Shown piece by piece: positions 1 through 52,562 of a stretch of 64,000 nt of DNA. A program made the position numbers and the translations under genes. Origin of the DNA: Spirochaetota bacterium (lineage in GTDB: Bacteria > Spirochaetota > UBA12135 > COTS27 > CBDBHE01). The stretch spans positions 1 to 64,000 of the forward strand of contig CBDBHE010000005.1 in assembly GCA_965205605.1 (NCBI GenBank), read 5' to 3'. The notes under the pieces are model-generated. The model worked only from the letters and a program-made list of their open reading frames with translations. It did no database searches and was not told the origin of the DNA. Positions within the stretch are counted from its first letter, which is position 1, and each line of letters starts with the position of its first letter.

Positions 1-581
1 GAAAGTACATGGGTCAGCAATAAAGCCATCTACAGAACAAGAAAAAGTATTAAAAAGGGAGGGGAACTTATTATTATTGCTCCAGGGGTAAAACGATTTG
101 GTGAACAAAAAATTGTTGACAAGTTAATTGATAAATACGGTTATTTTGGGACTAAAAAAAACTTTGAAAGCTTATAAAAAAAAATAAAGATCTCAATGAA
201 TTTTCAAACTCTGCCGCTCATTTAATCCATGGTTCTTCAGAAGGAAGGTTTAAAATTACTTACGCACCTGCAAGTCTTTCAAAAAAAAAAATCGAAAAAG
301 TCGGTTATCATTACATGGACATTAAAAAAGCACTTGAAATATATTCTCCTCAAAAAAAAAAAGAAGGTTATTATAAAGACAATAACAATTCTTATTATTT
401 TATTAAATACCCTAGTGCTGGCTTATGGTCTAGTCAAAAAAACTTTATTAAAAGTCTAAAAAAAAATCAAAAATATATTAAAAAAATGATCAAAAAAGAA
501 AACAAAGAAAATAGCTGGAACAAAATCTACGATCATAATTTGAAAATTATAAAAAAAATCAAAAAAAAAAATAAAATCTAA
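1..581 (+). pseudogene. 3' part of a LarA/DUF2088 (lactate racemase superfamily) gene; 5'-truncated by the window edge and frameshifted near 154-185
   Basis: Frame 1 reads ESTWVSNKAIYRTRKSIKKGGELIIIAPGVKRFGEQ...DKYGYFGT and stops at 175-177. Frame 3 continues NKDLNEFSNSAAHLIHGSSEGRFKITYAP...YMDIKK...PSAGLW into the 315..581 ORF. These motifs match LarA-domain proteins as I recall them. Confidence 0.65.
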
Positions 582-656
582 TAGTAAAATTAAAAAAATA
601 AGTGTATATTAAAATTAATAAATTTTTTTTTTGTTTATTCAAAAAAACCTTCTAAA

Positions 657-1158
657 ATGGCAATTATATTATTCAAAGGCAACCCTGCTAACACAATAGG
701 TGATTTTGCCTAATATAGGTGAGGATGCGAAGCCTTTTACATTGGCGTCCAAAGACTTAAATGATGTTTCATTAAATGACTATGAAGGTAAAATCAAAAT
801 TTTAAATATTGTCCCAAGTTTAGATACGAAAATTTGTGCCTTATCAGCGAAAAAATTTAATGAAATCGCCACTACAAAAAAAGAAATTGTTATTTTAACG
901 ATCTCTGAAGATTTGCCTTTTGCTCAAAAGAGATTTTGTGAAGCAGAAAATATTAACCAAGTCATTAGTCTTTCAAGCTTTAGGAGTTCCTTTGGGGAAG
1001 ACTATGGTGTAAAAATAATAGAGAGCCCCTTGAGAGGGTTATTGGCTCGTTCTATTTTAGTGATTGATCAAGCAAATAAAGTTATTTATAAAGAATTAGT
1101 AAAAGAAGTGACGAGCCAAGAACCCAATTACGATCAAGTTATTAAAGCTATTAATTAA
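657..1158 (+). CDS. tpx: thiol peroxidase (Tpx, atypical 2-Cys peroxiredoxin); +1 frameshift near 704-707
   Basis: Motifs VPSLDTKIC and SEDLPFAQKRFC. The typical N-terminus MAIILFKGNPANTIG starts at ATG 657 in a different frame from the 700..1158 ORF. Confidence 0.85.
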
Positions 1159-1505
1159 GAAATTTCTGATTTCTTTTGTAAAGCCCTTTTTTTTCTTTTA
1201 TTTTTTTGTTTCTTAAGTTTTCTTCTTTTTTTTTCTGTTTCACTTATGATTCCAAAAGAAGACTCTATTTTTTCAATTAAAAGGCGCCTGGCAAAAAAAC
1301 GATTATCCTCTCGACACCTTTCATAGCCTACTTTAACAATAATTCTTGTTGGTCTATGCTTTAAAAAAACTAAAGAAGCTGTTTTATTTGCCTTTTCTCC
1401 CCCTTTAGTTGAAGCTGATAAAAATTTTTCCTCAATGTCTTTTTCATTAATAGAAAGAAGATGCATCTTTTCTACTAACAATTTTTTTTTTTTATCAGAG
1501 ATCAT
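1155..1505 (-). CDS. short peptide chain release factor-like protein (ArfB/C12orf65-like RF-1 domain, basic C-tail) with GGE instead of GGQ
   Basis: DIEEKFLSASTKGGEKANKTASLVFLKHRPTRIIVK...RCREDNR, followed by a Lys/Arg-rich tail. Confidence 0.8.
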   Translation of the reverse strand: MISDKKKKLLVEKMHLLSINEKDIEEKFLSASTKGGEKANKTASLVFLKHRPTRIIVKVGYERCREDNRFFARRLLIEKIESSFGIISETEKKRRKLKKQKNKRKKRALQKKSEIS

Positions 1506-1509
1506 CTCT

Positions 1510-2097
1510 CTAGGTTATCAAATAAACCGTAAGCGACCTTGGACCATGAGCTCCTATAACAAGTGACTGTTCAATATCAGCTGTTTTTGAAGGACCCGAA
1601 ATGAAAAGACCATAAGAAATATTTTTAAAACTAATTTTTTCATAAGCTTCATGCATATTATTAACTAAATGCTTTAAGCTAGTAAAAAGAATCAAATGCT
1701 CTCCCATAAAATAAGTCAACCGATCCACCACCCCTTCATTAGTTACCCAAACAGCTCCATTTTCAGCAACACACACCCCTCCCTTAACAATAGCAAGGTC
1801 TAATTTCTTCACGCTCTCTTTTAAGTTATCTTCTTCAAATCCAAGACTTTTAATAAGCTTAAAATTAGAATAAATCGTTTTAGATTGTTTGTAAATCATT
1901 TGCTTTTCAATAGAAATTTTCAATTTTTTTTCATTTTTAACAATAAAACCTTTCCCTCCAACTTCAGAAAGAATTTTAAAAAACTGTTTTTCTTTATTTT
2001 TATAGATTGTTTTATCCGCTTTAAAAGGTTTTAATTCTTTCTCTTTTAAAGAAAAAAAATCTATTTTAGATAAAATTTTTTCCCGACTATTTCTCAT
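1510..2097 (-). CDS. lutC: lactate utilization protein C (LUD domain, YkgG/LutC)
   Basis: VAENGAVW and FISGPSKTADIEQSLVIGAHGPR; follows lutAB. Confidence 0.9.
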   Translation of the reverse strand: MRNSREKILSKIDFFSLKEKELKPFKADKTIYKNKEKQFFKILSEVGGKGFIVKNEKKLKISIEKQMIYKQSKTIYSNFKLIKSLGFEEDNLKESVKKLDLAIVKGGVCVAENGAVWVTNEGVVDRLTYFMGEHLILFTSLKHLVNNMHEAYEKISFKNISYGLFISGPSKTADIEQSLVIGAHGPRSLTVYLIT

Positions 2098-3487
2098 TTG
2101 ATTTTTTTTTAAAAACCCCTCCTAGCCTTTCTTGATAAATTTCCTTAAAGCTTTTTTTAGCAAAGAGAGGGAGTTCTCTTTTTTTTCCCCAAGCATTAAA
2201 TCGGTGATAAATCATAAAGCGAGGCAATTTAGAAGTTAATAACCTACCAACCTTCGAAAAAAAATGATAAAGAGAATTTTTATAAAGCACCTTCCCTAAA
2301 ATTTTCATTAAAATTCGTTTTGAAAAAGAAACCATTTTTTTATCGTTCAAATCAGCTCTCCAAGCAAGCAATTGATGGTGAAGATCCACTTTAACAGGAC
2401 ACACATCCGTACACGAACCACAAAGACTACTTGCAAAAGGAAGATTTGCATACTTTTTAGGGTTAACATGAGGTGCTAAAACAGCTCCTATAGGCCCTGG
2501 AACAACATAACCATAACTATGCCCTCCACTTCTTCTATAGACAGGACACGTGTTAATACAAGCTCCACAACGAATACAATTAAGAGATTTTCGGTAAACT
2601 GACTTGCCAACAATATCTGAACGATGGTTATCCACAATCACAATATGAAACTCTCCTCCCTTTTTAGGCTTTAAAAAATGAGAAGAATACGCTGTAATAG
2701 GCTGACCTGTTGCTGAACGAGCCAGTATTCTTAAAAAAATAGATAAGTCTTTCATTTGAGGAATCAATTTTTCAATCCCCATACATGCAATATGCACATG
2801 AGGTAACGAAGCTCCTATGTCTGCATTTTGTTCATTGGTACAAACAACGATTCCCCCCGTTTCTGCAATCGCAAAATTAACTCCTGTAATACCTGCCTCT
2901 GCATTTAAAAAATATTTTCTCATATCTTTTCTAGCTGCCATAACAAGGACTTTCTCATCATCTTCATGATCTTTTGTTTTTAAGTGCTGATGAAAAAGTT
3001 GGCCCACTTCTTTTTTCTTAAGATGAATCGCAGGCGTCACAATATGACTAGGCCTCTCTTTTCTAAGCTGAATAATTCTTTCTCCCAAATCAGTATCCAC
3101 TACTTTTATTTTTTTTGATTCTAAATATTGATTTAAATGACATTCCTCTGTTAACATCGATTTACTTTTAACCACATTTTTAACTTTATGTTTCTTTAAA
3201 ATACGATGAACAATTTGATTATGTTCCTTACCATTAAGAGCCCAATGAATATGGATTCCATTTTTTTTTGCATTCTTTTCAAAAAGCCTCAAATAATGAG
3301 AAAGCCGGCTAACCGTGTGTTCTTTAATTTGAGAAGCTTGGGAACGAAGGTCTTCCCATTCTTTAACTTGATTAACCGCTTTATCTCTTTTTTGCCTAAT
3401 AAACCAAATAGACTCATCATGCCAAAAGACTCTCTTCTTATCTTTATTAAAATGAGTCGCTTTTTTTGAATGATCAATTGTTTTCAT
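2087..3487 (-). CDS. lutB: L-lactate dehydrogenase complex Fe-S subunit (YkgF/LutB)
   Basis: KSKSMLTEE, TDLGERIIQL, PSHIVTPAIH, CIRCGACINTCP, SSLCGSCTDVCP. Confidence 0.95.
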   Translation of the reverse strand: MKTIDHSKKATHFNKDKKRVFWHDESIWFIRQKRDKAVNQVKEWEDLRSQASQIKEHTVSRLSHYLRLFEKNAKKNGIHIHWALNGKEHNQIVHRILKKHKVKNVVKSKSMLTEECHLNQYLESKKIKVVDTDLGERIIQLRKERPSHIVTPAIHLKKKEVGQLFHQHLKTKDHEDDEKVLVMAARKDMRKYFLNAEAGITGVNFAIAETGGIVVCTNEQNADIGASLPHVHIACMGIEKLIPQMKDLSIFLRILARSATGQPITAYSSHFLKPKKGGEFHIVIVDNHRSDIVGKSVYRKSLNCIRCGACINTCPVYRRSGGHSYGYVVPGPIGAVLAPHVNPKKYANLPFASSLCGSCTDVCPVKVDLHHQLLAWRADLNDKKMVSFSKRILMKILGKVLYKNSLYHFFSKVGRLLTSKLPRFMIYHRFNAWGKKRELPLFAKKSFKEIYQERLGGVFKKKSNEK

Positions 3488-4231
3488 TTAAGGCTTTTCT
3501 CCCAAAAGAATGTTGGCCAAATGCAATATTTTTATTTTAGATTTTTTCCTTTTTAAAAGTCCTTCCAAATGCATTAAGCAAGACATATCAACTCCTGTAA
3601 TCACTTGTGCATCTGCTTGCTTATGATCGATAAGTCGGTCTTCTCCCATTTGACAAGAAATCGTTTCTTGATAAGTAGAAAACATTCCTCCAAAACCACA
3701 ACATTCATCCTCTCTTTTAAGAGTAACAAGCTTTAAACCTTTGATTTTGCTTAAAAGACCTTTTGCTTTACTAAAAAAAGGGCCTACTTTTTCACTACTC
3801 TTTGCTAATCCAAGTTCTCTTAAACCATGGCAACTATGATGAAACCCTACTCGATAAGGAAAAGATATCTTCTTAGGTTCATAAGAAACAATTTCCACTA
3901 AAAATTCTGTTAATTCATAAGTTTTATTAAGAAAATCACGCGTATCCTTACTATCATTAAAAAAAGAATGATAATGATTTCTTATCATAGAGGTACAACT
4001 ACCCGAAGGACAAACAACATAATCATAATCATGAAACAAATCATAATACTTTTTAGCAATAGGCTTCACTCCTTTTTGAAACCCTGAATTGGCAATAGGC
4101 TGTCCACAACAAACTTGAGACAAGGGATAATGTGGTTTTATACCTACTTTTTCAAGTAAACGAAAAGTTGCTATACCAACCTCTGGATAAAATTGATCAA
4201 TATAACAAGGAATAAAAAGGGCAACATCCAC
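3488..4231 (-). CDS. lutA: L-lactate dehydrogenase complex CCG-domain subunit (YkgE/LutA)
   Basis: LFIPCYIDQFYP, CCGQP, SGSC, HHSCHGLR, CCGFGG. Confidence 0.95.
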   Translation of the reverse strand: MDVALFIPCYIDQFYPEVGIATFRLLEKVGIKPHYPLSQVCCGQPIANSGFQKGVKPIAKKYYDLFHDYDYVVCPSGSCTSMIRNHYHSFFNDSKDTRDFLNKTYELTEFLVEIVSYEPKKISFPYRVGFHHSCHGLRELGLAKSSEKVGPFFSKAKGLLSKIKGLKLVTLKREDECCGFGGMFSTYQETISCQMGEDRLIDHKQADAQVITGVDMSCLMHLEGLLKRKKSKIKILHLANILLGEKP

Positions 4232-4258
4232 TTAAGTAAAACCTAAAAAATAAAAACC

Positions 4259-5041
4259 TTAAGAAGAGTAAGCTCGATCCAAATGAGTATAACCACCATC
4301 AACATAAATAATTTGCCCTGTTGTATGATTAGATTTAGGGGAAGCTAAGAAAGTAACCATATCGGCTATTTCTTCAGAAGTCGTCATACGATTTCCTAAA
4401 GGAATTAAGTTATTAATTTTTTTTAAAGCAGACTCTCTATTTTCTAAAGAATTAAGCCAAGTTTCATAAAGAGGTGTTAAGACTTCTGCTGGCACAACCG
4501 TATTGACACGAACATGATATTTAGCAAAGTCCAAAGCCCATTCTCGAGTCAAAGCGTTCATCGCTCCTTTAGAAGCAGCATACCCACTTGTATTTCCTTG
4601 ACCTGTTTGAGCAACTTTTGAGGAAACATTGATAATAGTCCCTTGTCTCTTTTTAAGAACCGGTAGAGCATAGTGCACTAAAGCATAACAATGAACAATA
4701 TTTAAATGAAGAGAATCCATGAATTTTTCCGGAGAAGAATTAATCCCTACCGAATCATTTTTCCCTGCGTTATTAACTAAAATATCAATTTGTTGATACT
4801 TTTCTAAAGTACGCGAAATAATTTGTTCACAAAAACCATCTTTTGTTAAATCTCCAATAATAGGATAAACTTGTAACCCTTTGTTTGCTAATTGTTTGAC
4901 TAATTTTTCAGTGACTCCCTGATTTCGATCAACAATCACAACCTTTGCTCCTTCAAAAGCTAGCGACTTTACAATACCAGCCCCAATGCCTTTTCCACTT
5001 CCTGTAACAATAGCAACCTTGTCTTTTAATTTTAAATCCAT
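4259..5041 (-). CDS. SDR oxidoreductase, probable L-fucose dehydrogenase
   Basis: TGSGKGIG, NNAG, YAASK, C-terminal VDGGYTHLDRA; adjacent to a lactonase. Confidence 0.75.
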   Translation of the reverse strand: MDLKLKDKVAIVTGSGKGIGAGIVKSLAFEGAKVVIVDRNQGVTEKLVKQLANKGLQVYPIIGDLTKDGFCEQIISRTLEKYQQIDILVNNAGKNDSVGINSSPEKFMDSLHLNIVHCYALVHYALPVLKKRQGTIINVSSKVAQTGQGNTSGYAASKGAMNALTREWALDFAKYHVRVNTVVPAEVLTPLYETWLNSLENRESALKKINNLIPLGNRMTTSEEIADMVTFLASPKSNHTTGQIIYVDGGYTHLDRAYSS

Positions 5042-5069
5042 AACTCTTCCTTTCTACTTAAAAAAACAC

Positions 5070-5903
5070 CTATAAATCATAAAATTGAATAGCATTTTCT
5101 CCAAAAATTTTATTTTTTTTTTCCTTTGAAAAATGCTCTGTATAATCTTCCACAATCCCTTTAGCTTGTTCGTAGTCCTTAGCCCCTAAAAGTAAAACAG
5201 GCCAATCCGAACCAAACATCAATCGATCAAAACCAAAAGCTTCAAAAACAACATCCAAATAAGGAACAAAATCATCATACTTCCACTCATTCCAATTACC
5301 CTCTGTTACCAAACCAGAAACTTTACAATACAGATTGTTATGAGCACTTAATTCTTGTAAATGAGTTTTCCAAGGATCTATCAATTGATTAGCTATTTCA
5401 GGTTTTCCAAGATGATCAAGGACAATAGAAAGATTGGGTAGCTTATTTAAAAGTTGTATAGCCATAGGTAAATGCTTAGGATAAATTAATAAATCATAGG
5501 TTAATTTTTTTTGTTCTAAGACTTTAAGCCCCCTTATAAAATCATCTTTTAACATATAATTTTCATCTACTTCATCTTGAAGAATATGACGAATCCCTTT
5601 TAGTTTTTTATTGTGAGAAAGGGTCTGTAAAGTTTCTTCAATGTTTTCAGAGCAAAGGTCGACCCAAGCAACAACTCCATAAATAAAATTATTTTGTTCC
5701 GCCAAGCTTAAAAGCCACTTGGTTTCTTGGAAGTCTTGTCTTGCTTGAACACAAACACAACCGTCAATTTTATTTTTTTGAAGCTCTTTTTTAAGTAAAT
5801 TAGGCAAGTAATCTTTTTTTAAGATTCTCATCTTTTCGTTAATCCATCCATATTTTTCAGCAGAATAATGCCAAAAATGCTGGTGTGCATCAACAATTTC
5901 CAT
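5070..5903 (-). CDS. amidohydrolase_2 family, probable L-fuconolactonase
   Basis: DAHQHFW, GIRH, LDHLGKP, CKVSGL, MFGSDWPV. Confidence 0.8.
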   Translation of the reverse strand: MEIVDAHQHFWHYSAEKYGWINEKMRILKKDYLPNLLKKELQKNKIDGCVCVQARQDFQETKWLLSLAEQNNFIYGVVAWVDLCSENIEETLQTLSHNKKLKGIRHILQDEVDENYMLKDDFIRGLKVLEQKKLTYDLLIYPKHLPMAIQLLNKLPNLSIVLDHLGKPEIANQLIDPWKTHLQELSAHNNLYCKVSGLVTEGNWNEWKYDDFVPYLDVVFEAFGFDRLMFGSDWPVLLLGAKDYEQAKGIVEDYTEHFSKEKKNKIFGENAIQFYDL

Positions 5904-5936
5904 GTATCAATTGTCCTAAAAAATTAGCCCTATCCT

Positions 5937-6824
5937 TTAATTTTGCCCTTTATTTTGCCCTTTATTTTGCCCTTTAAAAGAAATCACATTTTGACGAGAA
6001 ACCCCTAAGCCATCAATTTTTGCTTCTACCACATCCCCTGCTTTTAAATATTGAGGAGAGCTCATTCCCAAACCTACTCCGGCAGGGGTGCCTGTAGAAA
6101 CAATGTCTCCTGGTAAAAGAGTCATGAAACAACTAATATAACTTAAAAGTGTTGGGACATCAAAAATTAAGTTTTTAGTGGTTCCATTTTGTTTCATCGT
6201 TCCATTAACGTTAAGGGTCATTTTTAAATCACTAATATCATTCATTTCATTTTGAGTAGCTACAAAAGGCCCAAAAGGAGCAAATGTATCACAACTTTTT
6301 CCCTTAACCCATTGCCCCGAACGCTCTAACTGAAACTCTCTTTCACTAAAATCTGAATGCAGTGCGTAACCTGCAATATAATCATACGCTGCTTCTTTAC
6401 TCACATAAGAAGCTTTTTTACCCACAACAAAAGCAAATTCAACTTCCCAATCAACTTTCTTTGCTCCTTTAGGAATCATCAAATCATCATAAGGGCCAAC
6501 ATAAGCCGAAGTTGATTTAAAAAATAAAACAGGTTCTTCAGGAGCTTTCATACCAGATTCTTCTGCGTGATCTTTAAAATTAAGACCAATACAAATGATT
6601 TTACTAGGACGACAAATAGGTGCTGCCCATCTTACAGACTGATCAACTTCCTTTAATAAATCTTTATTTTCAGAAAACCATTTTGAAAGCCGATTAATGC
6701 CACCTGTTTGAAAAAATCGCTCATTATAGTCTTCTCCAAAACCACTAGTGTCTACTCTTTTTCCATGGTCCAAAAGCAATCCTGTCTTCTCATTTGAAGT
6801 CTCTCCAAATCGAATAAGCTTCAT
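5937..6824 (-). CDS. fumarylacetoacetate hydrolase family, probable 2,4-diketo-3-deoxy-L-fuconate hydrolase
   Basis: KIICIGLN, DWEVE, WVKGKSCDTF, STGTPAGVG; operon context. Confidence 0.8.
   Translation of the reverse strand: MKLIRFGETSNEKTGLLLDHGKRVDTSGFGEDYNERFFQTGGINRLSKWFSENKDLLKEVDQSVRWAAPICRPSKIICIGLNFKDHAEESGMKAPEEPVLFFKSTSAYVGPYDDLMIPKGAKKVDWEVEFAFVVGKKASYVSKEAAYDYIAGYALHSDFSEREFQLERSGQWVKGKSCDTFAPFGPFVATQNEMNDISDLKMTLNVNGTMKQNGTTKNLIFDVPTLLSYISCFMTLLPGDIVSTGTPAGVGLGMSSPQYLKAGDVVEAKIDGLGVSRQNVISFKGQNKGQNKGQN
5940..5975. repeat. 3 x 12-bp tandem repeat (attttgcccttt) encoding C-terminal (KGQN)3
   Basis: three exact copies read directly. Confidence 0.95.
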
Positions 6825-6942
6825 ATTTCAATCCCTATCATAATAAATTTAAATACTTTTTAATAAAAAAAAGTTTATCATTATTAAATTTAAAATACCA
6901 CCCCTATTACTAATCACCTCGCTTGAATCATCATTTAATCTT

Positions 6943-7722
6943 CTAACGTAAATGCGTCACTCCCCCATCAATATCATAAGCCGATCCTGTGATAAAAGCA
7001 GCTTCATCAGAACACAAAAAAAATGCCAAAGCAGCAATTTCATTCGGTTGACCCATTCTCCCTAAAGGCTGGTAAGAAGAAAGTTTTTCAAACATTTCTT
7101 TTTCTTTTCCAGGATAGTTTTTCTTAATAAATCCATCAACAAAAGGAGTATGCACTCTAGCAGGACAAATACAATTAGCTCGTATCCCTTCATTGATATA
7201 ATCTTTAGCAACTGAAAGCGTCATCGTCAACACAGCTCCTTTACTCATCGAATAAGCAAATCGATCTTGAAGCCCTATTTTAGAAGCAATCGAAGCAAGA
7301 TTTAAAATCACTCCTTCTTTTTGTTTTAACATATACAAAATAGCTTCTTTCATTCCATTATAAACCCCTTTTACATTCACCTGATAAATTTGATCAAAAT
7401 CTTCTTCATTAGTATTTTCAATACTACCCACATGGGCAATACCTGCATTATTTATCAAAACATCAATTTTTGAAAATTCATCTACAATTTTTTTAAACGT
7501 TTCTTTCACATTTTTTTGACTAGAAACATCACAAGAAAAAAAAATAGCTTTTCCCTTTCCTCCTTGTTTAATTTTTTCTAAAACATTCGAAGCTGCTGCT
7601 TGATTTAATTCTAAAATAATAACCGTTGCTCCTTCTTTTGCAAAACGTACCGATATTGCCTCTCCAATCCCAGAGCCACCTCCTGTAACAATCACAATTT
7701 TGTTTTTTAATTGAATACTCAT
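6943..7722 (-). CDS. SDR oxidoreductase, probable 2-keto-3-deoxy-L-fuconate dehydrogenase
   Basis: TGGGSGIG, NNAG, DRFAYSMSKGAV, CICPARVHTPFV; operon context. Confidence 0.75.
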   Translation of the reverse strand: MSIQLKNKIVIVTGGGSGIGEAISVRFAKEGATVIILELNQAAASNVLEKIKQGGKGKAIFFSCDVSSQKNVKETFKKIVDEFSKIDVLINNAGIAHVGSIENTNEEDFDQIYQVNVKGVYNGMKEAILYMLKQKEGVILNLASIASKIGLQDRFAYSMSKGAVLTMTLSVAKDYINEGIRANCICPARVHTPFVDGFIKKNYPGKEKEMFEKLSSYQPLGRMGQPNEIAALAFFLCSDEAAFITGSAYDIDGGVTHLR

Positions 7723-7741
7723 TTATCAACCCCTACTTTTT

Positions 7742-9400
7742 TTAAAGAGAAATTCCTCTCTTCCATGGAATAAAATCTTCTTGTTGCAAAAGAAAAGCTT
7801 TGGTTTTAAGCTCTCCACTAGCAACTTTAATCGCAAAATCTAAAAGTTTTTCACCAAGTGACTGTATGCTTTCTTTACCACTAATAATCTCTCCTGTATC
7901 AAAATCAATCATGTCTTTTTGATTTTCAAAAAGATGCGTCGTTGTTGAAATCTTAATCACAGGGGCAATCGGATTGCCTGTAGGCGTACCAAGACCTGTA
8001 GAAAAAAGCACCAAATTAGATCCTGATCCTACTAAAGCAGTTACTGACTCTACGTCATTACCAGGTGTACACAAAAGATTGAGTCCTTGCTTTTGAAGCT
8101 TTTCTGAATAATCAAGCACATCAATAATTCTACCCGTACCCCCTTTTTTAGCTGCACCAGCTGACTTGATGGCATCGGTAATTAGCCCGTCTTTAATATT
8201 CCCAGGAGAAGGATTCATATCAAATCCAGATCCACTTTCAACAGCTCTTTTTTCATAAATTTCCATTAAATCAACAAAACGCTTGGAAACTTCTTTTGTG
8301 GCACAACGATTTATAAGCTCTTGTTCAACACCACAAAGCTCTGGAAACTCCGATAAAATAGCACTTCCCCCACAAGCTGTCAGTAAATCAACCACTTGAC
8401 CAATGACCGGATTAGCCGAAATCCCTGAAAATCCATCCGAAGCCCCACATTCAACTCCAAAAATCAACTTATTAATAGAAGCTTCTTCTCTAATACATTC
8501 ATCAGCTTTCATTAGCCCCACAAAAGTTGACTGTATTGCTTTTTCAATCAGCTTTTTTTCTGAAAAAATTTTCTGTTGCTCAAAAATATACAGTGGTTTG
8601 TTAAAGTGAGAATCTTTTTTATTAATTTCTTCTTTTAAAAGACTCACTTGGGCATGCTGACATCCCAAACTCATAACAGTCGCTCCACAAATATTAGGAT
8701 GAGTGATATAACCGGCTAAAAGCGAACACAACGCCCTTGAATCTCCTTGCGTTTCCCCGCAACCACTTTGATGTGTTAAAAACTTAATCCCATCAATGTT
8801 TTTAAAAACAATGTCCTTTTTAAAAAAAACAGATTTAATTTCTTCTAAAGAAAATTTTTCAATTTCTTCTGTTGTTTTTCCTTTCTTATATAGATTAATT
8901 AACGTTTCAATTTGATTTTTATAAATATTTTCTCTTTGATACCCCAATACTTTAGAAAACGCTTCTTTTAAAACAAGGACATTGCGATTCTCACAAAAAA
9001 CAAGTGGTAATACCAACCAATAATTAGCCGTTCCTACAAATCCATTAGACCTATGATACCCCATAAACGTTCTATCTTGAAATTTAGAAACATCCGGCTT
9101 CTCCCAAACAAACTTACTCTCATTTGCTTGATAAGCTTCTCTATCATGCTTTAAATTGCTAACTGTAATTAAAGCTCCTTTTTTGATTGCTTTGATCGCA
9201 CGCCCAACAACAACTCCATATAAAGTAGCCACTTCCCCTACTTTAAAATCTTTACAAGTAAATTTATGCTTGAGAGGAATGTCTTCTACTAAAAAAAAAT
9301 TTTGTCTCTTTAGTTTAATCTCTTCACCTTTTTTTAAATCGCAAAGAGCAACCATTAAGTCATCTTTTTGATCAATTTCTAAAAATTTTCTTGCTATCAT
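7742..9400 (-). CDS. uxaA: UxaA/GarD-family acid-sugar dehydratase (SAF + GD_AH_C domains)
   Basis: N-terminal SAF-like region, ECGASDGFSGISANP, LSEFPEL, NPSPGN, TPGNDVES, FSTGLGTP. Confidence 0.85.
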   Translation of the reverse strand: MIARKFLEIDQKDDLMVALCDLKKGEEIKLKRQNFFLVEDIPLKHKFTCKDFKVGEVATLYGVVVGRAIKAIKKGALITVSNLKHDREAYQANESKFVWEKPDVSKFQDRTFMGYHRSNGFVGTANYWLVLPLVFCENRNVLVLKEAFSKVLGYQRENIYKNQIETLINLYKKGKTTEEIEKFSLEEIKSVFFKKDIVFKNIDGIKFLTHQSGCGETQGDSRALCSLLAGYITHPNICGATVMSLGCQHAQVSLLKEEINKKDSHFNKPLYIFEQQKIFSEKKLIEKAIQSTFVGLMKADECIREEASINKLIFGVECGASDGFSGISANPVIGQVVDLLTACGGSAILSEFPELCGVEQELINRCATKEVSKRFVDLMEIYEKRAVESGSGFDMNPSPGNIKDGLITDAIKSAGAAKKGGTGRIIDVLDYSEKLQKQGLNLLCTPGNDVESVTALVGSGSNLVLFSTGLGTPTGNPIAPVIKISTTTHLFENQKDMIDFDTGEIISGKESIQSLGEKLLDFAIKVASGELKTKAFLLQQEDFIPWKRGISL

Positions 9401-9456
9401 TAATGATTAAAATAATTCATTTTATAAAATAAAAGAGAGGTTTCTTTAAAAAAACC

Positions 9457-10086
9457 TCAACTAGAAATCTGCATGATTTTTTTACAAATAGGTGATTGTA
9501 AAACATCAAACCCTCTAGCTGGTGAATACTCCCTCCCATAATAAATCATTTGAAGATGTAACTTAACCCAATTCTTTTTAGGAAACAAATTTTTTAAATC
9601 TTTTTCGATTTTTTGCACACTCTTTCCTCTCGAAAGCCCCCATCTTAAAGCAAGACGATGAATATGTGTATCAACAGGGAAAGCAGGTTTATTAAAAATC
9701 TGTGTCATAACAACAGACGCACTTTTATGCCCAATACCAGGAAGCGATTCTAAGGCTTCAAATGTACTAGGAACTTTACTCTCATATTTTTCAACTAAAA
9801 TTTTAGAAAGCAATGAAATGGCTTTTGACTTTTGAGGGGAAAGACCACAAGAACGAATAATAAAGTGAATCTTTTCTAAAGAAACTTTCATCATTTTTTC
9901 AGGAGTATCCGCTAAAGTAAAAAGAACAGGCGTTGTTAAATTAACCCTTGCATCAGTACACCTGGCCGAAAGAAGCACCGCAATTAAAAGAGTATACGGA
10001 CTTTTGTGCTTTAATGGAATCGATGGATTTGGATAAAGATAACTAAGAGTTTTTAGAATAAATTGAACTTTTGCTTTTTGATCCAT
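9457..10086 (-). CDS. nth: endonuclease III
   Basis: LLIAVLLSARCTDARVN, HhH LPGIGHKSA, FPVDTHIHR. Confidence 0.93.
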   Translation of the reverse strand: MDQKAKVQFILKTLSYLYPNPSIPLKHKSPYTLLIAVLLSARCTDARVNLTTPVLFTLADTPEKMMKVSLEKIHFIIRSCGLSPQKSKAISLLSKILVEKYESKVPSTFEALESLPGIGHKSASVVMTQIFNKPAFPVDTHIHRLALRWGLSRGKSVQKIEKDLKNLFPKKNWVKLHLQMIYYGREYSPARGFDVLQSPICKKIMQISS

Positions 10087-10128
10087 GATAGCTTAATCGA
10101 AAAAATCAAAATTTTAAAATAACTCTAG

Positions 10129-10500
10129 TTACTTGTCTTTTTGATTTAAATCGCCAATTCCTGTAATATTAATAGACCCCTTACTCACTCCCCCTTTTTG
10201 CACAAAAAAACTAGCTGTAATCACATCTCCCTCAATCTTACCAGAAGAAAGAATTTTCACTTCGTCTTCAGATAAAATATTCCCTTTTAACTTCCCAGCT
10301 ATCGTACTTTTTTTACTGACCACACTACTTTCAATACATCCCTTTTGGTCTAAATAAAGGCTCTCTTCTACTTTCAATTCTCCTTTAAAAGTACCATAAA
10401 CTTTCATTTTTCCTCTCACATAAAAAACTCCTTCAAAGACACTCTCAAGACCTATTTGAGAATCGGTTAATTTAGGAGAAGGTGTTTTTTTTAAACGCAT
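10129..10500 (-). CDS. bactofilin (polymer-forming cytoskeletal protein)
   Basis: SQIGLESVFEG..., repeated G-x-x-x-G beta-helix pattern, ends V-Q-K-G-G-x-x-x-G. Confidence 0.85.
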   Translation of the reverse strand: MRLKKTPSPKLTDSQIGLESVFEGVFYVRGKMKVYGTFKGELKVEESLYLDQKGCIESSVVSKKSTIAGKLKGNILSEDEVKILSSGKIEGDVITASFFVQKGGVSKGSINITGIGDLNQKDK

Positions 10501-10519
10501 GAAAAATTCTCTTTTTTAA

Positions 10520-12148
10520 TTAAAAAACAACCCATTTTTTTTCTTTTAAAAAATAAATCGCCTTTTTATAATCCTCTTCTTTTAAAAAAAGAATTATCCC
10601 ATGCTTCTTCAAGAAAATCACCTCTGCTTTTTCAGATAGCTTTTCTTCTAAAATTAATTTGGTATGTTTATACAGTTCTTTTGAGTATGTTCTAATTGCA
10701 AAAATGGATTCTTTTTTAAAAGTTTCTAGTTGTTTAAAAAAAGAATTAACTTGCTTAGAAACAAAATCATTATAATAATCAGGTGCAATTTTACTTAAAA
10801 AAAATTTGATTTTCTTGGGATAAAAATGACAAAACCAAGCTAAAGATAGCTTCTTCAAATCGAAAGAAGCCTGTATCGTATAATCAGCAATATTTAATTT
10901 GGTAAAAAGGCTCAAATAATACAAAATAGAAGGGCATGTTTTACTTTTATAAAGAGTTAGCATCCCATCTGTATCAATAATACCATTAAGCTTAGGCTTC
11001 TTTTTTCCACCTAGTTTATTGTTAATTGTCTCTTTAAGTACATAGCGCAACATTTTTTTTGAAAAAAAAATAAAATCCCTTTGCTCACTGATAAAAGCTA
11101 ATTTATCTAAACGATCAACTTCTTTATGAAACAAAGCATAATTTATTAATTCCTTTTGATCTAAAATTCTTTTTTTATTCATTTCATGAAATAATCTTTT
11201 TTTACTTATAAATCCTTTAGATTTTGATGCATTACTTATTAAAACAAGCAGTACTTCAAAACCATAAGAAAAAAAATTTTCAAGTAAAAACTGCACCTTC
11301 AAATGAAAAGGCTTTTTAAGGTAACTAATATACTTTTTCCTTCTAAAAAAAAAACGAGCTAAAACAAAAGCTTGTCTACCTCCTTTTTTTTGAAATAAAA
11401 AATGATCTTTTCTAATTTTTTTTTTAAGGTGAAGTTCATAAATAAATTCATCAACTGTGCTTAAAAAAAGAGAAGTCTTTTCTGAAGTATGAGCATGTGA
11501 GATCGGTTTTTTATTCTCTTCAAAAAAAACTGAATTTAAAAAAACTATCGGCTTAAAGTCCTTTGTAAAACCAAAAAGCAAGCATTTTTTTTTTAAAAGA
11601 GATAAAAGAATCGACTGTTCTTCTTTTAAAAAACAGCTTTTCGCATATAAAAAATTAAATTGCTCTAAGTAGCTCTTTTCTTCATAAGTAAGATTTTTCA
11701 AAGTATTTTTTGAAAGCATTTCTTTAGGTAAATTTTCTTCAATAACAAAAATAGACTTTAAAAAATCACAAAAGTTTTTTGAAAAAATAGCAACATCTTT
11801 TTTAGATTCTAAATAAGAACGATCTTTTTGAATCGAAATCACGTCTATTTCATCTAAAAAATAAACGGTTTTCATCAACGCTTGATCTTCTAAAAAAGGA
11901 GAAATTAAAAGGGGTTTTTGCTTTTCAGGTAAAACTAAGTAAGAATCTTTTAAAGAAAAAATAAACTCTTTTAAATAATTTTTAACAAAATTAGCCACGA
12001 TTTGATGGGCAATATTAGACAAAGATACATAATAAGTAAAAAATAAAAAAATATCATTTGAGATTTTTTGATACTCATCGAGATTTTTAATATTCCAAAA
12101 AGAAAGAAACGTTTTCTCTTTTTTTTCATCTATAAAAAATTTTAACAC
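10520..12148 (-). CDS. hypothetical protein; C-terminal part weakly resembles a Helicase_C_3/XPB-associated domain
   Basis: 542-aa ORF fills the space between genes; the resemblance is by eye only. Confidence 0.55.
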   Translation of the reverse strand: MLKFFIDEKKEKTFLSFWNIKNLDEYQKISNDIFLFFTYYVSLSNIAHQIVANFVKNYLKEFIFSLKDSYLVLPEKQKPLLISPFLEDQALMKTVYFLDEIDVISIQKDRSYLESKKDVAIFSKNFCDFLKSIFVIEENLPKEMLSKNTLKNLTYEEKSYLEQFNFLYAKSCFLKEEQSILLSLLKKKCLLFGFTKDFKPIVFLNSVFFEENKKPISHAHTSEKTSLFLSTVDEFIYELHLKKKIRKDHFLFQKKGGRQAFVLARFFFRRKKYISYLKKPFHLKVQFLLENFFSYGFEVLLVLISNASKSKGFISKKRLFHEMNKKRILDQKELINYALFHKEVDRLDKLAFISEQRDFIFFSKKMLRYVLKETINNKLGGKKKPKLNGIIDTDGMLTLYKSKTCPSILYYLSLFTKLNIADYTIQASFDLKKLSLAWFCHFYPKKIKFFLSKIAPDYYNDFVSKQVNSFFKQLETFKKESIFAIRTYSKELYKHTKLILEEKLSEKAEVIFLKKHGIILFLKEEDYKKAIYFLKEKKWVVF

Positions 12149-12261
12149 AAAACAAAACTTCTTTAAAACTCAAAACTGAGTTATATTATAACCTGCATCC
12201 CAAAAGTAAATTTTTTTTTACTGACTAAAAAAAATTTGTTGAAAATTTCAAAACATAAAAA

Positions 12262-12975
12262 ATGGAACCTCTTCAAAAGAAATTAAAACTTTTCTCCCTC
12301 ATTAGCACTCCTATTGGTAATCTAAAAGACATTACCTTAAGGGCTTTAGAAGTCCTTAAAGATTCAAATGCCATTGTTATTGAAAATTATAAAACAGGCA
12401 AAAAAAAACTCGAACAACTAGGAATTTCACTTGTCAACAAAGATCTTTGGGAAATAAATCGAAAAAATGAAACAAGAGAATCTACCAATTTAGCACTAAC
12501 TCTCATTAAAAATTATAAAACAGCCTCCATGATTTCAGATGGGGGGGCTCCTTTATTTGCTGACCCTGGGAAGCAACTGATAAAAAAATTAAAACAGCAC
12601 CATATCCCCATTACTTTTTTACCAGGAGCCTCTTCTTTAATTGCCGCTTTAGTGCTCTGTGGTTTTGAATTAGAATCTTTTTTCTATGCAGGTTTTTTAC
12701 CAAGAGAAAAATCCCAAAGAATTATTTCGTTAAAAAAATTAAAAAATCATCGATGTCCTATTGTTTTTTATGAAACTCCTTATCGTCTTAGCGCCATACT
12801 ATATGATTTAAATAACATTTTCGAACCATCAACAAAAATAGCTCTTTGCTTTAACCTAACAGAAGGAAAAGAAACCATTATTCAAAAACCTTTAAAAGAA
12901 ATTTATCAGCTATTTTTCAAAAAAAAAATTAAAGAACCTTTTGTCTTAATCACAAACTCTTTGATTAAAAAATAA
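12262..12975 (+). CDS. rsmI: 16S rRNA (cytidine1402-2'-O)-methyltransferase
   Basis: STPIGNLKDITLRALEVL, ISDGGAPLFADPG, FYETPYRL. Confidence 0.9.
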   Translation: MEPLQKKLKLFSLISTPIGNLKDITLRALEVLKDSNAIVIENYKTGKKKLEQLGISLVNKDLWEINRKNETRESTNLALTLIKNYKTASMISDGGAPLFADPGKQLIKKLKQHHIPITFLPGASSLIAALVLCGFELESFFYAGFLPREKSQRIISLKKLKNHRCPIVFYETPYRLSAILYDLNNIFEPSTKIALCFNLTEGKETIIQKPLKEIYQLFFKKKIKEPFVLITNSLIKK

Positions 12976-13056
12976 GCCTTCTTCAAAAAATAAAATTTTA
13001 AACTATAAAGTCTATTGATTTTATAGATAATTAATTTAATGTTATAATGAAAAAAA

Positions 13057-14907
13057 ATGAAAAAAATTAATTTAAAAGAAGTCACCATTCGAATTAGTGG
13101 AGATTCTGGAGATGGCGTGCAACTGATTGGACAAAATCTAGCAAATACCACTGCTTTTTTTGGTAATGATATTGGAACTTTACCTGATTTTCCAGCAGAA
13201 ATTAGAGCTCCTATGGGAAGTTTATCGGGAGTTTCTGGATTTCAGATTCGACTCGGAAGCTATGAAATACATACAGCTGGGGATGAAGTAGATGCTCTTA
13301 TAGCGATGAATCCTGCTGCTTTAAAAACGAGTCTTTCTTCATTAAAAAAAGGAGGAGTTTTAATTGTTAACACAAAACATTTTGATCTCAAAGGTTTAAA
13401 ATTTGCAGGGTATGAAACCAATCCTTTAGAAGACGGGAGTGTCAGTAATTATCAAACACATGCGATTAACTTAACGGAATTAGTAGGAAAAACTCTTAAA
13501 GAACTTGACTTGTCTCATAAAGCCTCTGATCGTTGTAAAAATTTCTTTGCTCTTGGGATGCTTTACTGGCTTTATAATCGAGATTTAGAAGAAACTATTT
13601 TATTCTTAAAAAACAAATTTGAGAAACAAGAAGTTCTTTTAAAGGCCAATCTTCTAGCCTTAAAAGGAGGCTATGCTTTTTGTGACGCCAGTGATTTATT
13701 TCAAGACTCTTACCAGGTTAACCCTGTTAAATTGTCTAAAGGGACTTATAAAAACATCAATGGAAATGAGGGGATTGCCCTTGGGTTGATTGTAGGGGCA
13801 AAGAAAGCAAATCTCAATTTATATTATGCTTCTTACCCTATTACACCGGCGAGTGATTTGCTTCATTATCTTTCTAAACAAAAGCAGTATAATGTTAAAA
13901 CGTTTCAAGCAGAAGACGAAATTGCAGCTGTTTCTTCAGCTATTGGGGCTTCTTATGCAGGGAGCTTAGGTGCTTGTGGGTCATCGGGGCCAGGGATTCT
14001 TTTAAAGCAAGAAGCCATCAACTTAGCAATAATGACAGAACTCCCTTTAGTGATTGTTAACATTCAAAGAGCAGGTCCAAGTACAGGGATGCCAACTAAG
14101 ACAGAACAATCTGATCTTTTAATGACACTTTATGGGAGAAATGGAGATTCTCCTATCCCTGTTTTAGCGACTAGCCACCCAGGGGATTGTTTTGAAGTCG
14201 CTATAGAAGCGGCAAAAATTGCTTTAGAAACAATGTCTCCTGTTTTTTTACTTTCTGATGGCTATATTGGTAATGGATCAGCCCCTTGGAAAATCCCTGA
14301 TTTTAAGAAGTTAGCAGCGATTTCAACTCAAAAAGATCATTTACCAAAACCTTTTAAGCCTTACATACGTCATGAAAAAACACTCTCTCGCTACTGGGCT
14401 ATTCCAGGACAGAAAGGATTTGAGCATCGGATTGGAGGCATTGAAAAAGAAGCTATTAGTGGTGAAATTAGCTACGATCCAACAAATCATGATTTAATGA
14501 CAAAAATCCGTTATCAAAAAATAAAAGCAATTCAAAATCGATTGCCAAAATTTTTATTATTAGGTAAAGAAAAAGGAGACGTTTTAGTGATTGGGTGGGG
14601 AAGTCCTTATGGAAGTATTCGAACGGCTGTTGAAGCATTACAAAAAGAAAATAAAGATGTTTCTTGGATTCATTTGAAATACTTAAATCCTCTCCCAAAA
14701 CAATTAAAAACTTTAATTAAAAATTTTAAACATATTCTCATCCCAGAAATTAATCAAGGGCAACTTTCCTTTATCATCAAAGCTAAATTTTTACGTGAAA
14801 TCCAAGGTCTTAATTTAGTAAGGGGGCTTCCTTTTCAAGTTTCAGAAATCAAACAAGCTATTACCAATCTTCTAAAAAAAGCATCTTCTTTTTATGAAAC
14901 AAAATAA
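13057..14907 (+). CDS. korA: 2-oxoacid:ferredoxin oxidoreductase alpha subunit
   Basis: GDSGDGVQL, YPITPAS, QAEDEIAA, QRAGPSTGMPTK. Confidence 0.93.
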   Translation: MKKINLKEVTIRISGDSGDGVQLIGQNLANTTAFFGNDIGTLPDFPAEIRAPMGSLSGVSGFQIRLGSYEIHTAGDEVDALIAMNPAALKTSLSSLKKGGVLIVNTKHFDLKGLKFAGYETNPLEDGSVSNYQTHAINLTELVGKTLKELDLSHKASDRCKNFFALGMLYWLYNRDLEETILFLKNKFEKQEVLLKANLLALKGGYAFCDASDLFQDSYQVNPVKLSKGTYKNINGNEGIALGLIVGAKKANLNLYYASYPITPASDLLHYLSKQKQYNVKTFQAEDEIAAVSSAIGASYAGSLGACGSSGPGILLKQEAINLAIMTELPLVIVNIQRAGPSTGMPTKTEQSDLLMTLYGRNGDSPIPVLATSHPGDCFEVAIEAAKIALETMSPVFLLSDGYIGNGSAPWKIPDFKKLAAISTQKDHLPKPFKPYIRHEKTLSRYWAIPGQKGFEHRIGGIEKEAISGEISYDPTNHDLMTKIRYQKIKAIQNRLPKFLLLGKEKGDVLVIGWGSPYGSIRTAVEALQKENKDVSWIHLKYLNPLPKQLKTLIKNFKHILIPEINQGQLSFIIKAKFLREIQGLNLVRGLPFQVSEIKQAITNLLKKASSFYETK

Positions 14908-15913
14908 TTCTTCTAATCTTACTAAAAAAGACTTTATTTCTAATCAACAAGTGCGTTGGTGTCCTGGATGTGGAGACTATGCTATTTTATCAGCAATTCA
15001 AAAAACTTGTCCTCAATTAGACATCCCAAAAGAAAATTTTGTTTTTGTCTCTGGCATTGGGTGTGCTTCTCGCTTACCTTACTATATGAATACTTATGGG
15101 TTTCATACCATTCATGGAAGAGCACCTTCTTTTGCAACCGGTATTAAAATTGCCAATCCTGATCTTATGGTTTGGGTTATTACTGGAGACGGGGATGCTT
15201 TAAGTATTGGGGGGAATCACTTTATTCACCTACTAAGAAGAAATGTCAATGTCAATTACTTGTTAATTAACAACCAAATTTATGGACTGACAAAAGGACA
15301 ATATTCACCGACTTCAGCACAAGGGCAAAAAACAAAATCAACTCCTCAAGGTTCTATTGAAACCCCTATTAATCCTGTAAAACTTGCTATTGCTTCAGGA
15401 GCGTCTTTTGTCTCAAGAGTGTATGATACAGATGTTAAAGGAATGGAAGCCATCTTTTTAGAAGCTTCTAAACATCAAGGGACTAGTTTCATAGAAATTT
15501 ATCAAAACTGTAACATCTTTAATGATAAAGTATTTGAAAAATATACCCATAGAGATACCAAAGAAGACACAACTATTTTTTTGGAAGACCAAAAACCTCT
15601 TATTTTTGGAAAAAACAAAGACAAAGGGATTCGGTTAAAAGGATTTTCTTTAGAAGTTGTCGATTTAAATAAAGAAAAAAGCGACAATTTATTAATCCAT
15701 AGTGTAAAAGAAGATTCTGAGTTGCAAGCTTATCTTTATAGCACGATGGATACAAATCCAAACTTACCCGCTCCTTTTGGTATTTTTAGAAAAATCTCTA
15801 AGGGGGTTTATGAAACCACTCTTGAGCATCAAGTAAAAGAAGCCAAAAAAAATAAACCCACTAATGACTATCAAACATTACTACAATCAGGCCAAACTTG
15901 GAAAATCAAATAA
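14894..15913 (+). CDS. korB: 2-oxoacid:ferredoxin oxidoreductase beta subunit
   Basis: WCPGCGD, SGIGC, TPP motif GDGD...NN, YGLTKGQYSPT. Confidence 0.93.
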   Translation: MKQNNSSNLTKKDFISNQQVRWCPGCGDYAILSAIQKTCPQLDIPKENFVFVSGIGCASRLPYYMNTYGFHTIHGRAPSFATGIKIANPDLMVWVITGDGDALSIGGNHFIHLLRRNVNVNYLLINNQIYGLTKGQYSPTSAQGQKTKSTPQGSIETPINPVKLAIASGASFVSRVYDTDVKGMEAIFLEASKHQGTSFIEIYQNCNIFNDKVFEKYTHRDTKEDTTIFLEDQKPLIFGKNKDKGIRLKGFSLEVVDLNKEKSDNLLIHSVKEDSELQAYLYSTMDTNPNLPAPFGIFRKISKGVYETTLEHQVKEAKKNKPTNDYQTLLQSGQTWKIK

Positions 15914-25963: not shown

Positions 25964-25971
25964 TCTTTCCT

Positions 25972-26538
25972 ATGAGTTTATATCAAAAAAGTAAAAATTT
26001 TCTTTTTCAAGAGTTTATTCACAAAAATTACCAAGGCATTAATGAAGAAAATAAAAAAAAATTACTTGCCATTAAAACAGAAGATATTTTAACTTACAAA
26101 GAAGAATTAGAGGGTCTTTTAAAATTAATTGAACAAACAACTATTATTTTAAGTAAATCACCCAAATCTCTTTCTTTAAAAGAAAGTCTTTTTAAAATAT
26201 GTCGCGAATTTGAAATTGATTTTTTTACTTTATATCTTTTTAATTACAAAAAAACAATATTAGAAAAAAAAATTCACTTTGGAAATGAAGATTTACATAA
26301 AGCATCTATTCCCATTGAAGAATGGATAACCAAATCAGACAACCCTTTACTCTCTTTTTCCCTTTATAAAAATTCTAAAAAAAAACCTATTTTAGAACAA
26401 AAAACTATTTTAGAAAATTACAAAGGAAATCAAATTGGAGGAGTCATTTGGAAAAAAAAACTAAGTCATTATTCTTTACCTGTGATTAGAAATTTCTTAA
26501 AAAGCATGACTGTTTTTTGTATTAATAATTTTAAATAA
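25972..26538 (+). CDS. hypothetical protein
   Basis: 188-aa ORF tightly packed between co-directional genes. Confidence 0.6.
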   Translation: MSLYQKSKNFLFQEFIHKNYQGINEENKKKLLAIKTEDILTYKEELEGLLKLIEQTTIILSKSPKSLSLKESLFKICREFEIDFFTLYLFNYKKTILEKKIHFGNEDLHKASIPIEEWITKSDNPLLSFSLYKNSKKKPILEQKTILENYKGNQIGGVIWKKKLSHYSLPVIRNFLKSMTVFCINNFK

Positions 26539-40145: not shown

Positions 40146-40251
40146 GCTTTTTAGTTCTTTACCTAAAGGTAGAGTTATAGCCTACGTAATAAGTATCGGA
40201 ATTAAATAGTAATTATTTAGTATAAACATAAAAAAAATAAGGGAGTTGGTA

Positions 40252-48427: not shown

Positions 48428-48491
48428 CGAAGTTTTTTTCTTTAAATATGAGAGGTTGTTTAATTTTAAGTTGATTTTAAGAAAATTACTA

Positions 48492-50185: not shown

Positions 50186-51628
<1,443 letters not shown>

Positions 51629-51653
51629 TTACTTATTTATAAATATTTTTTGT

Positions 51654-52544: not shown

Positions 52545-52562
52545 ATTGTGAAACCAAATAGT

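Follow-up and report, generated by a model that had tools for sequence, protein, structure and literature searches.

What does a run of eight genes on the minus strand of a spirochaete contig do, when five of them resemble sugar and sugar-acid enzymes and the last three are lutABC? The genes lie near the start of a 64,000-nucleotide stretch (positions 1 to 64,000 of contig CBDBHE010000005.1, assembly GCA_965205605.1, from a Spirochaetota bacterium), which we call the window. An initial annotation, made from the sequence without database searches, had described eight co-directional, closely spaced genes and had proposed that they form one self-contained unit turning a 6-deoxyhexose into two pyruvates. 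The list of open reading frames (ORFs), Pfam and NCBIfam upheld the exact coordinates and the families (Table 1), and we think it likely that these genes encode the non-phosphorylating (oxidative) catabolism of L-fucose to two molecules of pyruvate, probably from a single operon.

Enzymes of the proposed route

In the scheme that we favor, the short-chain dehydrogenase/reductase (SDR) encoded next to lutA would oxidize L-fucose to L-fucono-1,5-lactone, which the Amidohydro_2 lactonase would convert into L-fuconate. The UxaA-type dehydratase would then form 2-keto-3-deoxy-L-fuconate (L-KDF), the SDR encoded next to the dehydratase would oxidize C4 of this acid, and the fumarylacetoacetate hydrolase (FAH) family protein would split the resulting diketo acid into pyruvate and L-lactate. 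LutABC would finally oxidize L-lactate to a second pyruvate, with the electrons passing to the respiratory chain. We infer every substrate, the co-transcription and the electron acceptor of this scheme from the sequence.

All of the enzymes of the diketo-hydrolase L-fucose route appear to be present, and the top match of each is the expected characterized family (the cut-offs given here are those of NCBIfam equivalog models, and structure matches are to PDB sequences). The predicted fucose dehydrogenase reaches 363.3 bits with the model NF052481 (FucosDh), above the cut-off of 300; its Ser/Tyr/Lys region is conserved, and it aligns end to end with 4gkb (E 1.1e-74) and 6drr (E 1.7e-65). The first of these entries, whose PDB title reads merely 3-oxoacyl-ACP reductase, is presumably BmulJ_04919 of Burkholderia multivorans. 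According to the available text of PMC6946681, 6DRR is FucX from Campylobacter jejuni, with activity toward L-fucose and D-arabinose, while BmulJ_04919 oxidizes both of these sugars and also L-galactose.

The top NCBIfam model for the lactonase is NF052480 (L-fucono-1,5-lactonase; 277.1 bits, under the cut-off of 400), and among PDB entries, 4dlf alone matches it at E ≤ 1e-10 (E 3.7e-49, residues 4 to 275). The FAH protein matches NF053535 best, over 1 to 284 of its 295 residues (308.7 bits, under the cut-off of 500), and its top PDB match, 8gsr (E 1.9e-63), is an L-2,4-diketo-3-deoxyrhamnonate hydrolase; the part of PMC11199699 on which we draw describes how the fucose and rhamnose routes meet at one diketo acid, whose hydrolysis yields pyruvate together with L-lactate. 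The same text reports assays of four types of L-KDF dehydrogenases, including a "type 4" from Sphingobacterium. The putative L-KDF dehydrogenase of the window is 52 to 66% identical to the SDR placed after the dehydratase in other fucose clusters and, set beside the type 4 pattern R-R-F-T, it keeps the equivalents of Arg183 and Phe192 and carries Tyr, not Thr, at the equivalent of position 211; this comparison was made with the published residue pattern, the first Arg of which was placed by eye.

The weakest of the enzyme assignments is that of the dehydratase, for which L-fuconate is a putative substrate taken purely from the context of the cluster. Along its full length, the protein shares 57 to 60% identity with UxaA-family proteins of Bacteroidota, and one ENA metagenome protein matches it with 88% identity. 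A UxaA/GarD-family enzyme is reported to accept D-arabinonate, D-altronate, L-fuconate and L-galactonate, which have a common C2-C4 configuration (PMC6336799, in part). UxaC was not found in the genome, a draft of 1.69 Mb in 8 contigs that is 91% complete (the genome-wide negatives below have the same scope), and a role for the dehydratase in hexuronate catabolism is thus unlikely here.

The diketo-hydrolase route put forward initially is therefore supported by homology and by synteny, as the dehydrogenase exceeds its equivalog cut-off and the order of the sugar genes recurs in Sphingobacteriaceae. The idea of a self-contained unit survives in part: the cluster appears enzymatically complete, but it is not self-contained, since there is no transporter, mutarotase or regulator within it.

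Table 1. Features of the cluster and its immediate surroundings, in the order of the minus strand from the dehydratase gene onward, with the upstream hairpin last
Feature	Coordinates	Strand	Length	Families and remarks
UxaA/GarD-family sugar-acid dehydratase	7742..9400	-	552 aa	Pfam SAF + GD_AH_second + GD_AH_C; first gene of the unit
SDR, putative 2-keto-3-deoxy-L-fuconate 4-dehydrogenase	6943..7722	-	259 aa	Pfam adh_short
FAH-family hydrolase, putative 2,4-diketo-3-deoxy-L-fuconate hydrolase	5937..6824	-	295 aa	Pfam FAA_hydrolase
cog3618 lactonase, putative L-fucono-1,5-lactonase	5070..5903	-	277 aa	Pfam Amidohydro_2
SDR, predicted L-fucose 1-dehydrogenase	4259..5041	-	260 aa	Pfam adh_short; NF052481
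lutA	3488..4231	-	247 aa	Pfam CCG x2
lutB	2087..3487	-	466 aa	Pfam LUD + 4Fe-4S dicluster + LutB_C
lutC	1510..2097	-	195 aa	Pfam LUD_dom, E 1.5e-17
RF-1-domain (ArfB-like) ORF	1155..1505	-	116 aa	Pfam RF-1, E 1.5e-15
Terminator-like hairpin followed by a T-run	9437..9458	-		3' of nth; upstream boundary of the unit

The link to lutABC

From the dehydratase gene to lutC, the intergenic gaps measure 19, 118, 33, 28, 27, 0 and -11 nt: the stop of the fucose dehydrogenase gene lies 27 nt from the lutA start, lutA and lutB leave no gap, and lutB and lutC overlap by 11 nt. Purine-rich motifs stand ahead of 7 of the 8 starts. A scan of positions 900 to 12400 predicted no terminator-like site inside the cluster, and the single minus-strand hairpin of this kind lies between nth and the dehydratase gene; over both strands, there were 2 sites, against 5.8 ± 2.5 expected from shuffled sequences. 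Promoter predictions were uninformative (44 sites against 39.6 ± 6.5 expected). The 118-nt gap between the SDR and FAH genes folds no better than shuffled sequence (z-score -0.21), and a search of positions 1 to 13000 for structured RNAs and riboswitches gave no Rfam match at E ≤ 0.1. Taken together, the eight genes are probably one operon. Contigs were also available from public sequencing (three runs of one study), and one of 6096 nt covers positions 1628 to 7723 with 0 differences, bridging lutC through the SDR gene next to the dehydratase; as its run is probably the source sample, it is not independent support for the assembly.

A ninth co-directional ORF, absent from the initial annotation, begins 4 nt past lutC and is possibly co-transcribed with it. 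It encodes an RF-1 domain and a lysine-rich tail, and has GGE at the position of GGQ, the release-factor motif; we found no orthologue in 5 genomes of the same order. On the plus strand, the start of the contig truncates a gene of the LarA family (NF052594, "nickel-dependent putative hexonate epimerase"), whose 3' part occupies positions 1 to 581. Positions 267 to 322 of the profile match frame 1 (1 to 174) and 323 to 410 match frame 3 (168 to 578), so that there is a frameshift near 168 to 177, or an assembly error; a variant contig has 1-nt deletions at 154 and 176. This epimerase gene, two genes away, may or may not be related to the fucose-lut unit.

Is the coupling of fucose genes to lutABC peculiar to this genome? 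We compared 80 loci from species-representative genomes, anchored on an alignment of the dehydratase (70 Bacteroidota, 9 Acidobacteriota and 1 Verrucomicrobiota), with 80 loci from JGI metagenome contigs anchored on the fucose dehydrogenase, of which 20 had full 10-kb flanks. Among the genome loci, 22 have two or more of the four partner genes next to the dehydratase gene, and the identical order uxaA-SDR-FAH-lactonase-fucDH occurs in 7 (Mucilaginibacter, Daejeonella, Sphingobacterium and Pedobacter). Among the metagenome loci, lutABC lies inside or beside the fucose genes in 4, all of them within the full-flank subset. Two of these are near-copies (L158 and L165), which leaves three gene orders, none matching that of the window. 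One (L138) reads lutABC-SDR-fucDH-GH95, with the glycoside hydrolase (GH) gene directly downstream and planctomycete-type PSCyt/DUF1501 neighbors. Another (L157) reads MFS-SDR-FAH-fucDH-lactonase-Zn-ADH-lutABC, and the near-copies read rhaM-MFS-SDR-lutABC-FAH-fucDH next to a SusC-type receptor. In a fifth locus (L179), distant lut genes lie 4 kb off.

These metagenome loci resemble the window in that lutABC stands directly with genes for the L-KDF dehydrogenase, the FAH hydrolase and the fucose dehydrogenase, and their LutB proteins are 53 to 60% identical to that of the window. They differ from it in gene order, in the presence of transporters and in having no UxaA-type dehydratase within 10 kb, and their hosts look PVC-like (PSCyt/DUF1501) and Bacteroidota-like (SusC-type receptor). 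The fucose-lut link is thus real and recurrent, but it is a minority arrangement. That the pairing is built in different gene orders speaks for function and against adjacency by chance. The run from fucose genes into lutABC, which had been singled out initially, is present as described, but it is less unusual than supposed, given the 4 of 80 metagenome loci that share it.

The lut genes themselves have the composition of the complex, with two CCG domains in LutA, LUD, 4Fe-4S and LutB_C domains in LutB and a LUD domain in LutC, all in three adjacent genes. LutB scores 441.9 to 442.0 bits with TIGR00273 (LutB/LldF; model positions 17 to 432), about 3 bits short of the cut-off of 444.8, which we read as a borderline pass, keeping the name LutB. 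Its best database matches are 60 to 63% identical, the named ones mostly from Planctomycetota, and the metagenome relatives at 88 to 89% identity listed for the dehydratase and for the alanyl-tRNA synthetase (AlaRS) of the window have no counterpart among the LutB matches listed. LutB is present at E ≤ 1e-40 in 16 of 400 other genomes of the phylum. In the same order, LutB is 52% identical and has no fucose genes nearby; lutABC stands alone in two such genomes (G019 and G033). In a quick tree, the LutB of the window sits on a long unsupported branch, and neither of two alternatives, a clade with the same-order proteins (p 0.178) or one with the fucose-linked proteins (p 0.254), is rejected by approximately unbiased (AU) tests. 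The tree and the tests thus favor neither arrival of lutABC together with the sugar genes nor its prior residence.

The rest of the genome bears on what the cluster might be used for. It contains two GH29 alpha-L-fucosidase genes, two GH95 genes, a RhaM-family mutarotase gene and a gene for haem-copper oxidase subunit I (COX1). FucP (TIGR00885), the LctP lactate permease, the FucI C-domain and cytochrome bd were not found. The lack of LctP, FucI and UxaC matches is consistent with lactate that is produced inside the cell, with only one fucose route and with a dehydratase that works outside hexuronate catabolism. The gene content as a whole would suit an aerobic organism that degrades fucosylated, sulfated glycans and in which LutABC would handle lactate of internal origin.

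Other parts of the genome and of the window add to this picture. One GH29 gene lies in a cluster (locus L201, G000:C7:271000-281500) with a GH89-type alpha-N-acetylglucosaminidase (NAGLU), a sulfatase and a 1099-aa PL8-type lyase, which suggests the use of sulfated, fucosylated glycosaminoglycan-like polymers. The other (locus L200 11108-17318, G000:C7:384100-390300) adjoins a minus-strand run that encodes an Nramp-like transporter (561 aa), a weak enolase-superfamily protein, a GFO/IDH/MocA oxidoreductase, a DUF993 protein and a xylose-isomerase-like TIM barrel, and this run is a candidate second sugar or sugar-acid unit. The window also encodes a 2-oxoacid:acceptor oxidoreductase with alpha and beta subunits (13057 to 15913), a 284-aa flagellin (40246 to 41100), aconitase (45728 to 48508) and a full F-type ATP synthase operon (50186 to 56914). 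Together with the haem-copper oxidase elsewhere, these genes point to a respiratory metabolism in this 1.7-Mb spirochaete.

Host, origin and competing readings

The best named matches of the window AlaRS are uncultured Spirochaetota metagenome-assembled genomes (46 to 49% identity), after one metagenome relative at 89%, which agrees with the initial impression of a probable spirochaete. FucosDh was found at E ≤ 1e-60 in 0 of the 400 other genomes of this phylum, which form an even sample with at most 6 candidates scored per genome, and the best in-phylum match of the dehydratase has 41% identity and covers the C-terminal part only. A dehydratase tree of 48 rows, from a quick search with SH-aLRT support, places the sequence of the window and the 88% relative beside one Verrucomicrobiales sequence (support 93), inside a clade (support 97) that otherwise holds 23 Bacteroidota. 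Acidobacteriota come next out, in-phylum UxaA paralogues are very distant, and the dehydratase of the window lies outside the fucose-linked clade of Sphingobacteriaceae.

Verrucomicrobiota are an unlikely donor, because this dehydratase type occurs in 2 of the 201 sampled genomes of the phylum to which the Verrucomicrobiales genome (G401) belongs and because the LutB of that genome is only 38% identical. Given this rarity, Bacteroidota are the likeliest ultimate source.

There is no compositional signal of transfer, as the codon usage and third-position GC content (GC3) of all eight genes fall within the normal range of the genome (4th to 87th percentile). A second co-occurring strain or species, at about 91% nucleotide identity, is represented by public-run contigs at 4597 to 5183, 8426 to 9014 and 2949 to 2972. 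It carries the dehydratase gene, the junction of the lactonase and dehydrogenase genes, and lutB, and fits the 88 to 89% protein relatives. Any transfer would therefore be old, and the likeliest history is that a Bacteroidota-type source supplied the five sugar genes long ago. Thus, the suspicion that the cluster holds Bacteroidota-like proteins gained by horizontal acquisition is supported for the sugar genes by the 0 of 400 count and the nested position of the dehydratase, but not for LutB, with its Planctomycetota matches. Upstream, the bactofilin-nth pair is the sole neighborhood conserved in three relatives (G019, G033 and G003); nothing downstream is syntenic in them, so that an ancestral empty site is not demonstrable. 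Upstream of this pair, a 542-aa ORF (10520 to 12148, minus strand) has no Pfam or NCBIfam match and an unusually low GC content of 0.246 (5th percentile of the ORFs of the genome). Pfam likewise gives no match at E ≤ 1e-5 for four ORFs farther into the window (390, 188, 266 and 388 aa), at 24791 to 26538 and 35074 to 37037.

Several observations weigh against a single oxidative fucose unit that includes lutABC. Of the five sugar enzymes, three fall under their NCBIfam equivalog cut-offs, as LutB also does, and the dehydrogenase family is reported to oxidize D-arabinose and L-galactose too. Dehydratase orthologues of equal identity (58%) are altronate dehydratases by context (uxaB-uxaA-uxaC); for instance, a Chitinophagaceae UxaA at 58% identity (locus L034, 8487 to 13174) is encoded between uxaB, which is two ORFs in the record, and uxaC, and adjoins GH28 and GH88 genes in a hexuronate locus. 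An internal promoter could lie in the 118-nt gap ahead of the FAH gene. Among the dehydratase-anchored genome loci, 0 of 80 have lutABC within 10 kb, and one has a 33%-identical LutB 9 kb off. Finally, a fucose transporter was not identified, as major facilitator superfamily (MFS) queries from other clusters gave no tblastn match in the genome.

One could accordingly imagine two abutting, independent units, namely a sugar-acid cluster for D-arabinose or L-galactose and an ordinary lutABC for imported lactate. The substrates of the BmulJ_04919/FucX family would allow this, as D-arabinose is shared and BmulJ_04919 also takes L-galactose (PMC6946681, in part), and the UxaA/GarD family includes a D-arabinonate dehydratase whose route ends in glycolate, not lactate (PMC6336799, in part). 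The solitary lutABC of the same order, the vertical descent of LutB that the AU test leaves standing and the Sphingobacteriaceae and Acidobacteriota fucose clusters without lutABC point the same way. Nevertheless, we regard two units as unlikely. A gap of 27 nt that contains no terminator-like site separates the halves, the genome yielded no LctP permease match and holds four fucosidase-family genes, and the pairing in three other gene orders and other lineages would be hard to explain unless the product were lactate.

An oxidative L-rhamnose route (of the LRA1-3, 5, 6 type) would pass through the same diketo acid and also give pyruvate and L-lactate. The top NCBIfam and PDB matches of the FAH enzyme bear rhamnonate names, the last intermediate is common to both routes (as stated in the consulted part of PMC11199699), and such clusters are accompanied by RhaM-family mutarotases; yet this substrate seems very improbable, since the first enzyme is above the L-fucose dehydrogenase cut-off and fuconolactonase is the top family of the lactonase. 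In addition, dehydrogenases for L-KDF and for its rhamnose counterpart (L-KDR) have opposite C4 stereoselectivity (same part of PMC11199699), the SDR of the window groups with fucose-cluster SDRs of the Sphingobacteriaceae type, and the genome has GH29 and GH95 genes, although rhamnosidases were not searched for. It is scarcely credible that Bacteroidota DNA entered a spirochaete genome through mis-assembly or mis-binning. Other phyla do supply the nearest homologues of the sugar genes, and the genome is a draft in several contigs, but the cluster is embedded in an 83.8-kb contig, and the housekeeping genes around it (nth/bactofilin on one side, the AlaRS type on the other) have their best matches in the same order or in Spirochaetota. 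Its GC3 and codon usage are those of the genome, identity to any Bacteroidota protein is at most 57 to 60%, and the related strain described above carries the same genes. An oxidative fucose unit extended by lutABC thus remains the reading that we prefer.

Known systems and wider meaning

One of the closest described counterparts is L-fucose degradation II of MetaCyc, found in Xanthomonas campestris, Burkholderia multivorans and Herbaspirillum huttiense. Like the proposed route, it has five reactions that end in pyruvate and L-lactate, and it uses the same families for the dehydrogenase, the lactonase, the 4-dehydrogenase and the FAH hydrolase. In contrast, its dehydratase is of the enolase type, not the UxaA/GarD type, and the cluster in the window has no transporter, regulator or mutarotase and has lutABC appended. 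To judge by its title, a 2019 paper in Molecular Microbiology reportedly deals with altronate-dehydratase-family enzymes in fucose pathways. Furthermore, K01685 (altronate hydrolase) is counted in a definition of pathway II in the available part of PMC13668718, which indicates that the UxaA-type substitution is already in use.

The fucose clusters of Sphingobacteriaceae (Pedobacter, Mucilaginibacter, Daejeonella and Sphingobacterium) share with the window the order uxaA-SDR-FAH-lactonase-fucDH, with proteins that are 42 to 64% identical, and an SDR that appears to be of the assayed Sphingobacterium type. Unlike the window, they have no lutABC within 10 kb; in one Mucilaginibacter genome that we examined, a 56%-identical LutB match lies outside the fucose locus (L065). 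The C. jejuni locus (Cj0480c-Cj0489) also has a FucX-type dehydrogenase, along with Cj0483, annotated as a dehydratase, and the amidohydrolase Cj0487, but there the DapA-like Cj0481 and an aldehyde dehydrogenase replace the pair of 4-dehydrogenase and FAH hydrolase, and LutABC (Cj0073c-75c) is encoded at a separate locus rather than joined to the sugar genes.

A similar extension has been described for another 6-deoxyhexose. Rodionova et al. (2013; PMC3870299) reported, in the part available to us, LldEFG and LldD in the L-rhamnose regulons of some Actinomycetales and Rhodobacterales, with the pathway extended to pyruvate. Those LutABC/LldEFG cases resemble the window in that a 6-deoxyhexose route is prolonged by the oxidation of L-lactate to pyruvate. 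They differ in that the rhamnose route is phosphorylated, with lactaldehyde (RhaEW) as the source of the lactate and a link at the level of regulation, whereas in the window the route would be oxidative, the sugar would be fucose and the genes are physically fused. In the literature that we searched, mostly without subscription papers and without supplements, we found no account of an oxidative fucose cluster to which lutABC is fused.

The oxidative L-fucose pathway is itself of textbook level by now, and the novelty here is in the phylum and the gene order of a known system, with no new mechanism; the biochemistry is established, and the gain is ecological and evolutionary. If the proposed reading is true, the known range of the pathway would come to include Spirochaetota, a phylum in which the 400 other sampled genomes did not yield it, and the cluster would be a clean case of pathway extension by gene fusion, in which the lactate end product is fed to a respiratory dehydrogenase. 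The locus also carries a warning for annotation, as near-identical orthologues that go by the name "altronate dehydratase" work in hexuronate clusters in some cases and in fucose clusters in others, and it suggests that surveys of glycan degradation could usefully take LutABC into the definition of L-fucose degradation II.

A broader scenario, which we offer tentatively, is that LutABC is a sixth step of the oxidative 6-deoxyhexose route that has been recruited recurrently and independently, with fucose-lut supra-operons assembled at least four times and with differing gene orders (once in the spirochaete, once in a lineage of PVC type and twice in lineages of Bacteroidota type). For the family of this spirochaete, an old transfer of the sugar block, either to a site beside lutABC or along with it, might then have given rise to a transporter-less module from fucose to two pyruvates that underpins an aerobic, small-genome lifestyle on fucosylated, sulfated glycans of hosts or algae.

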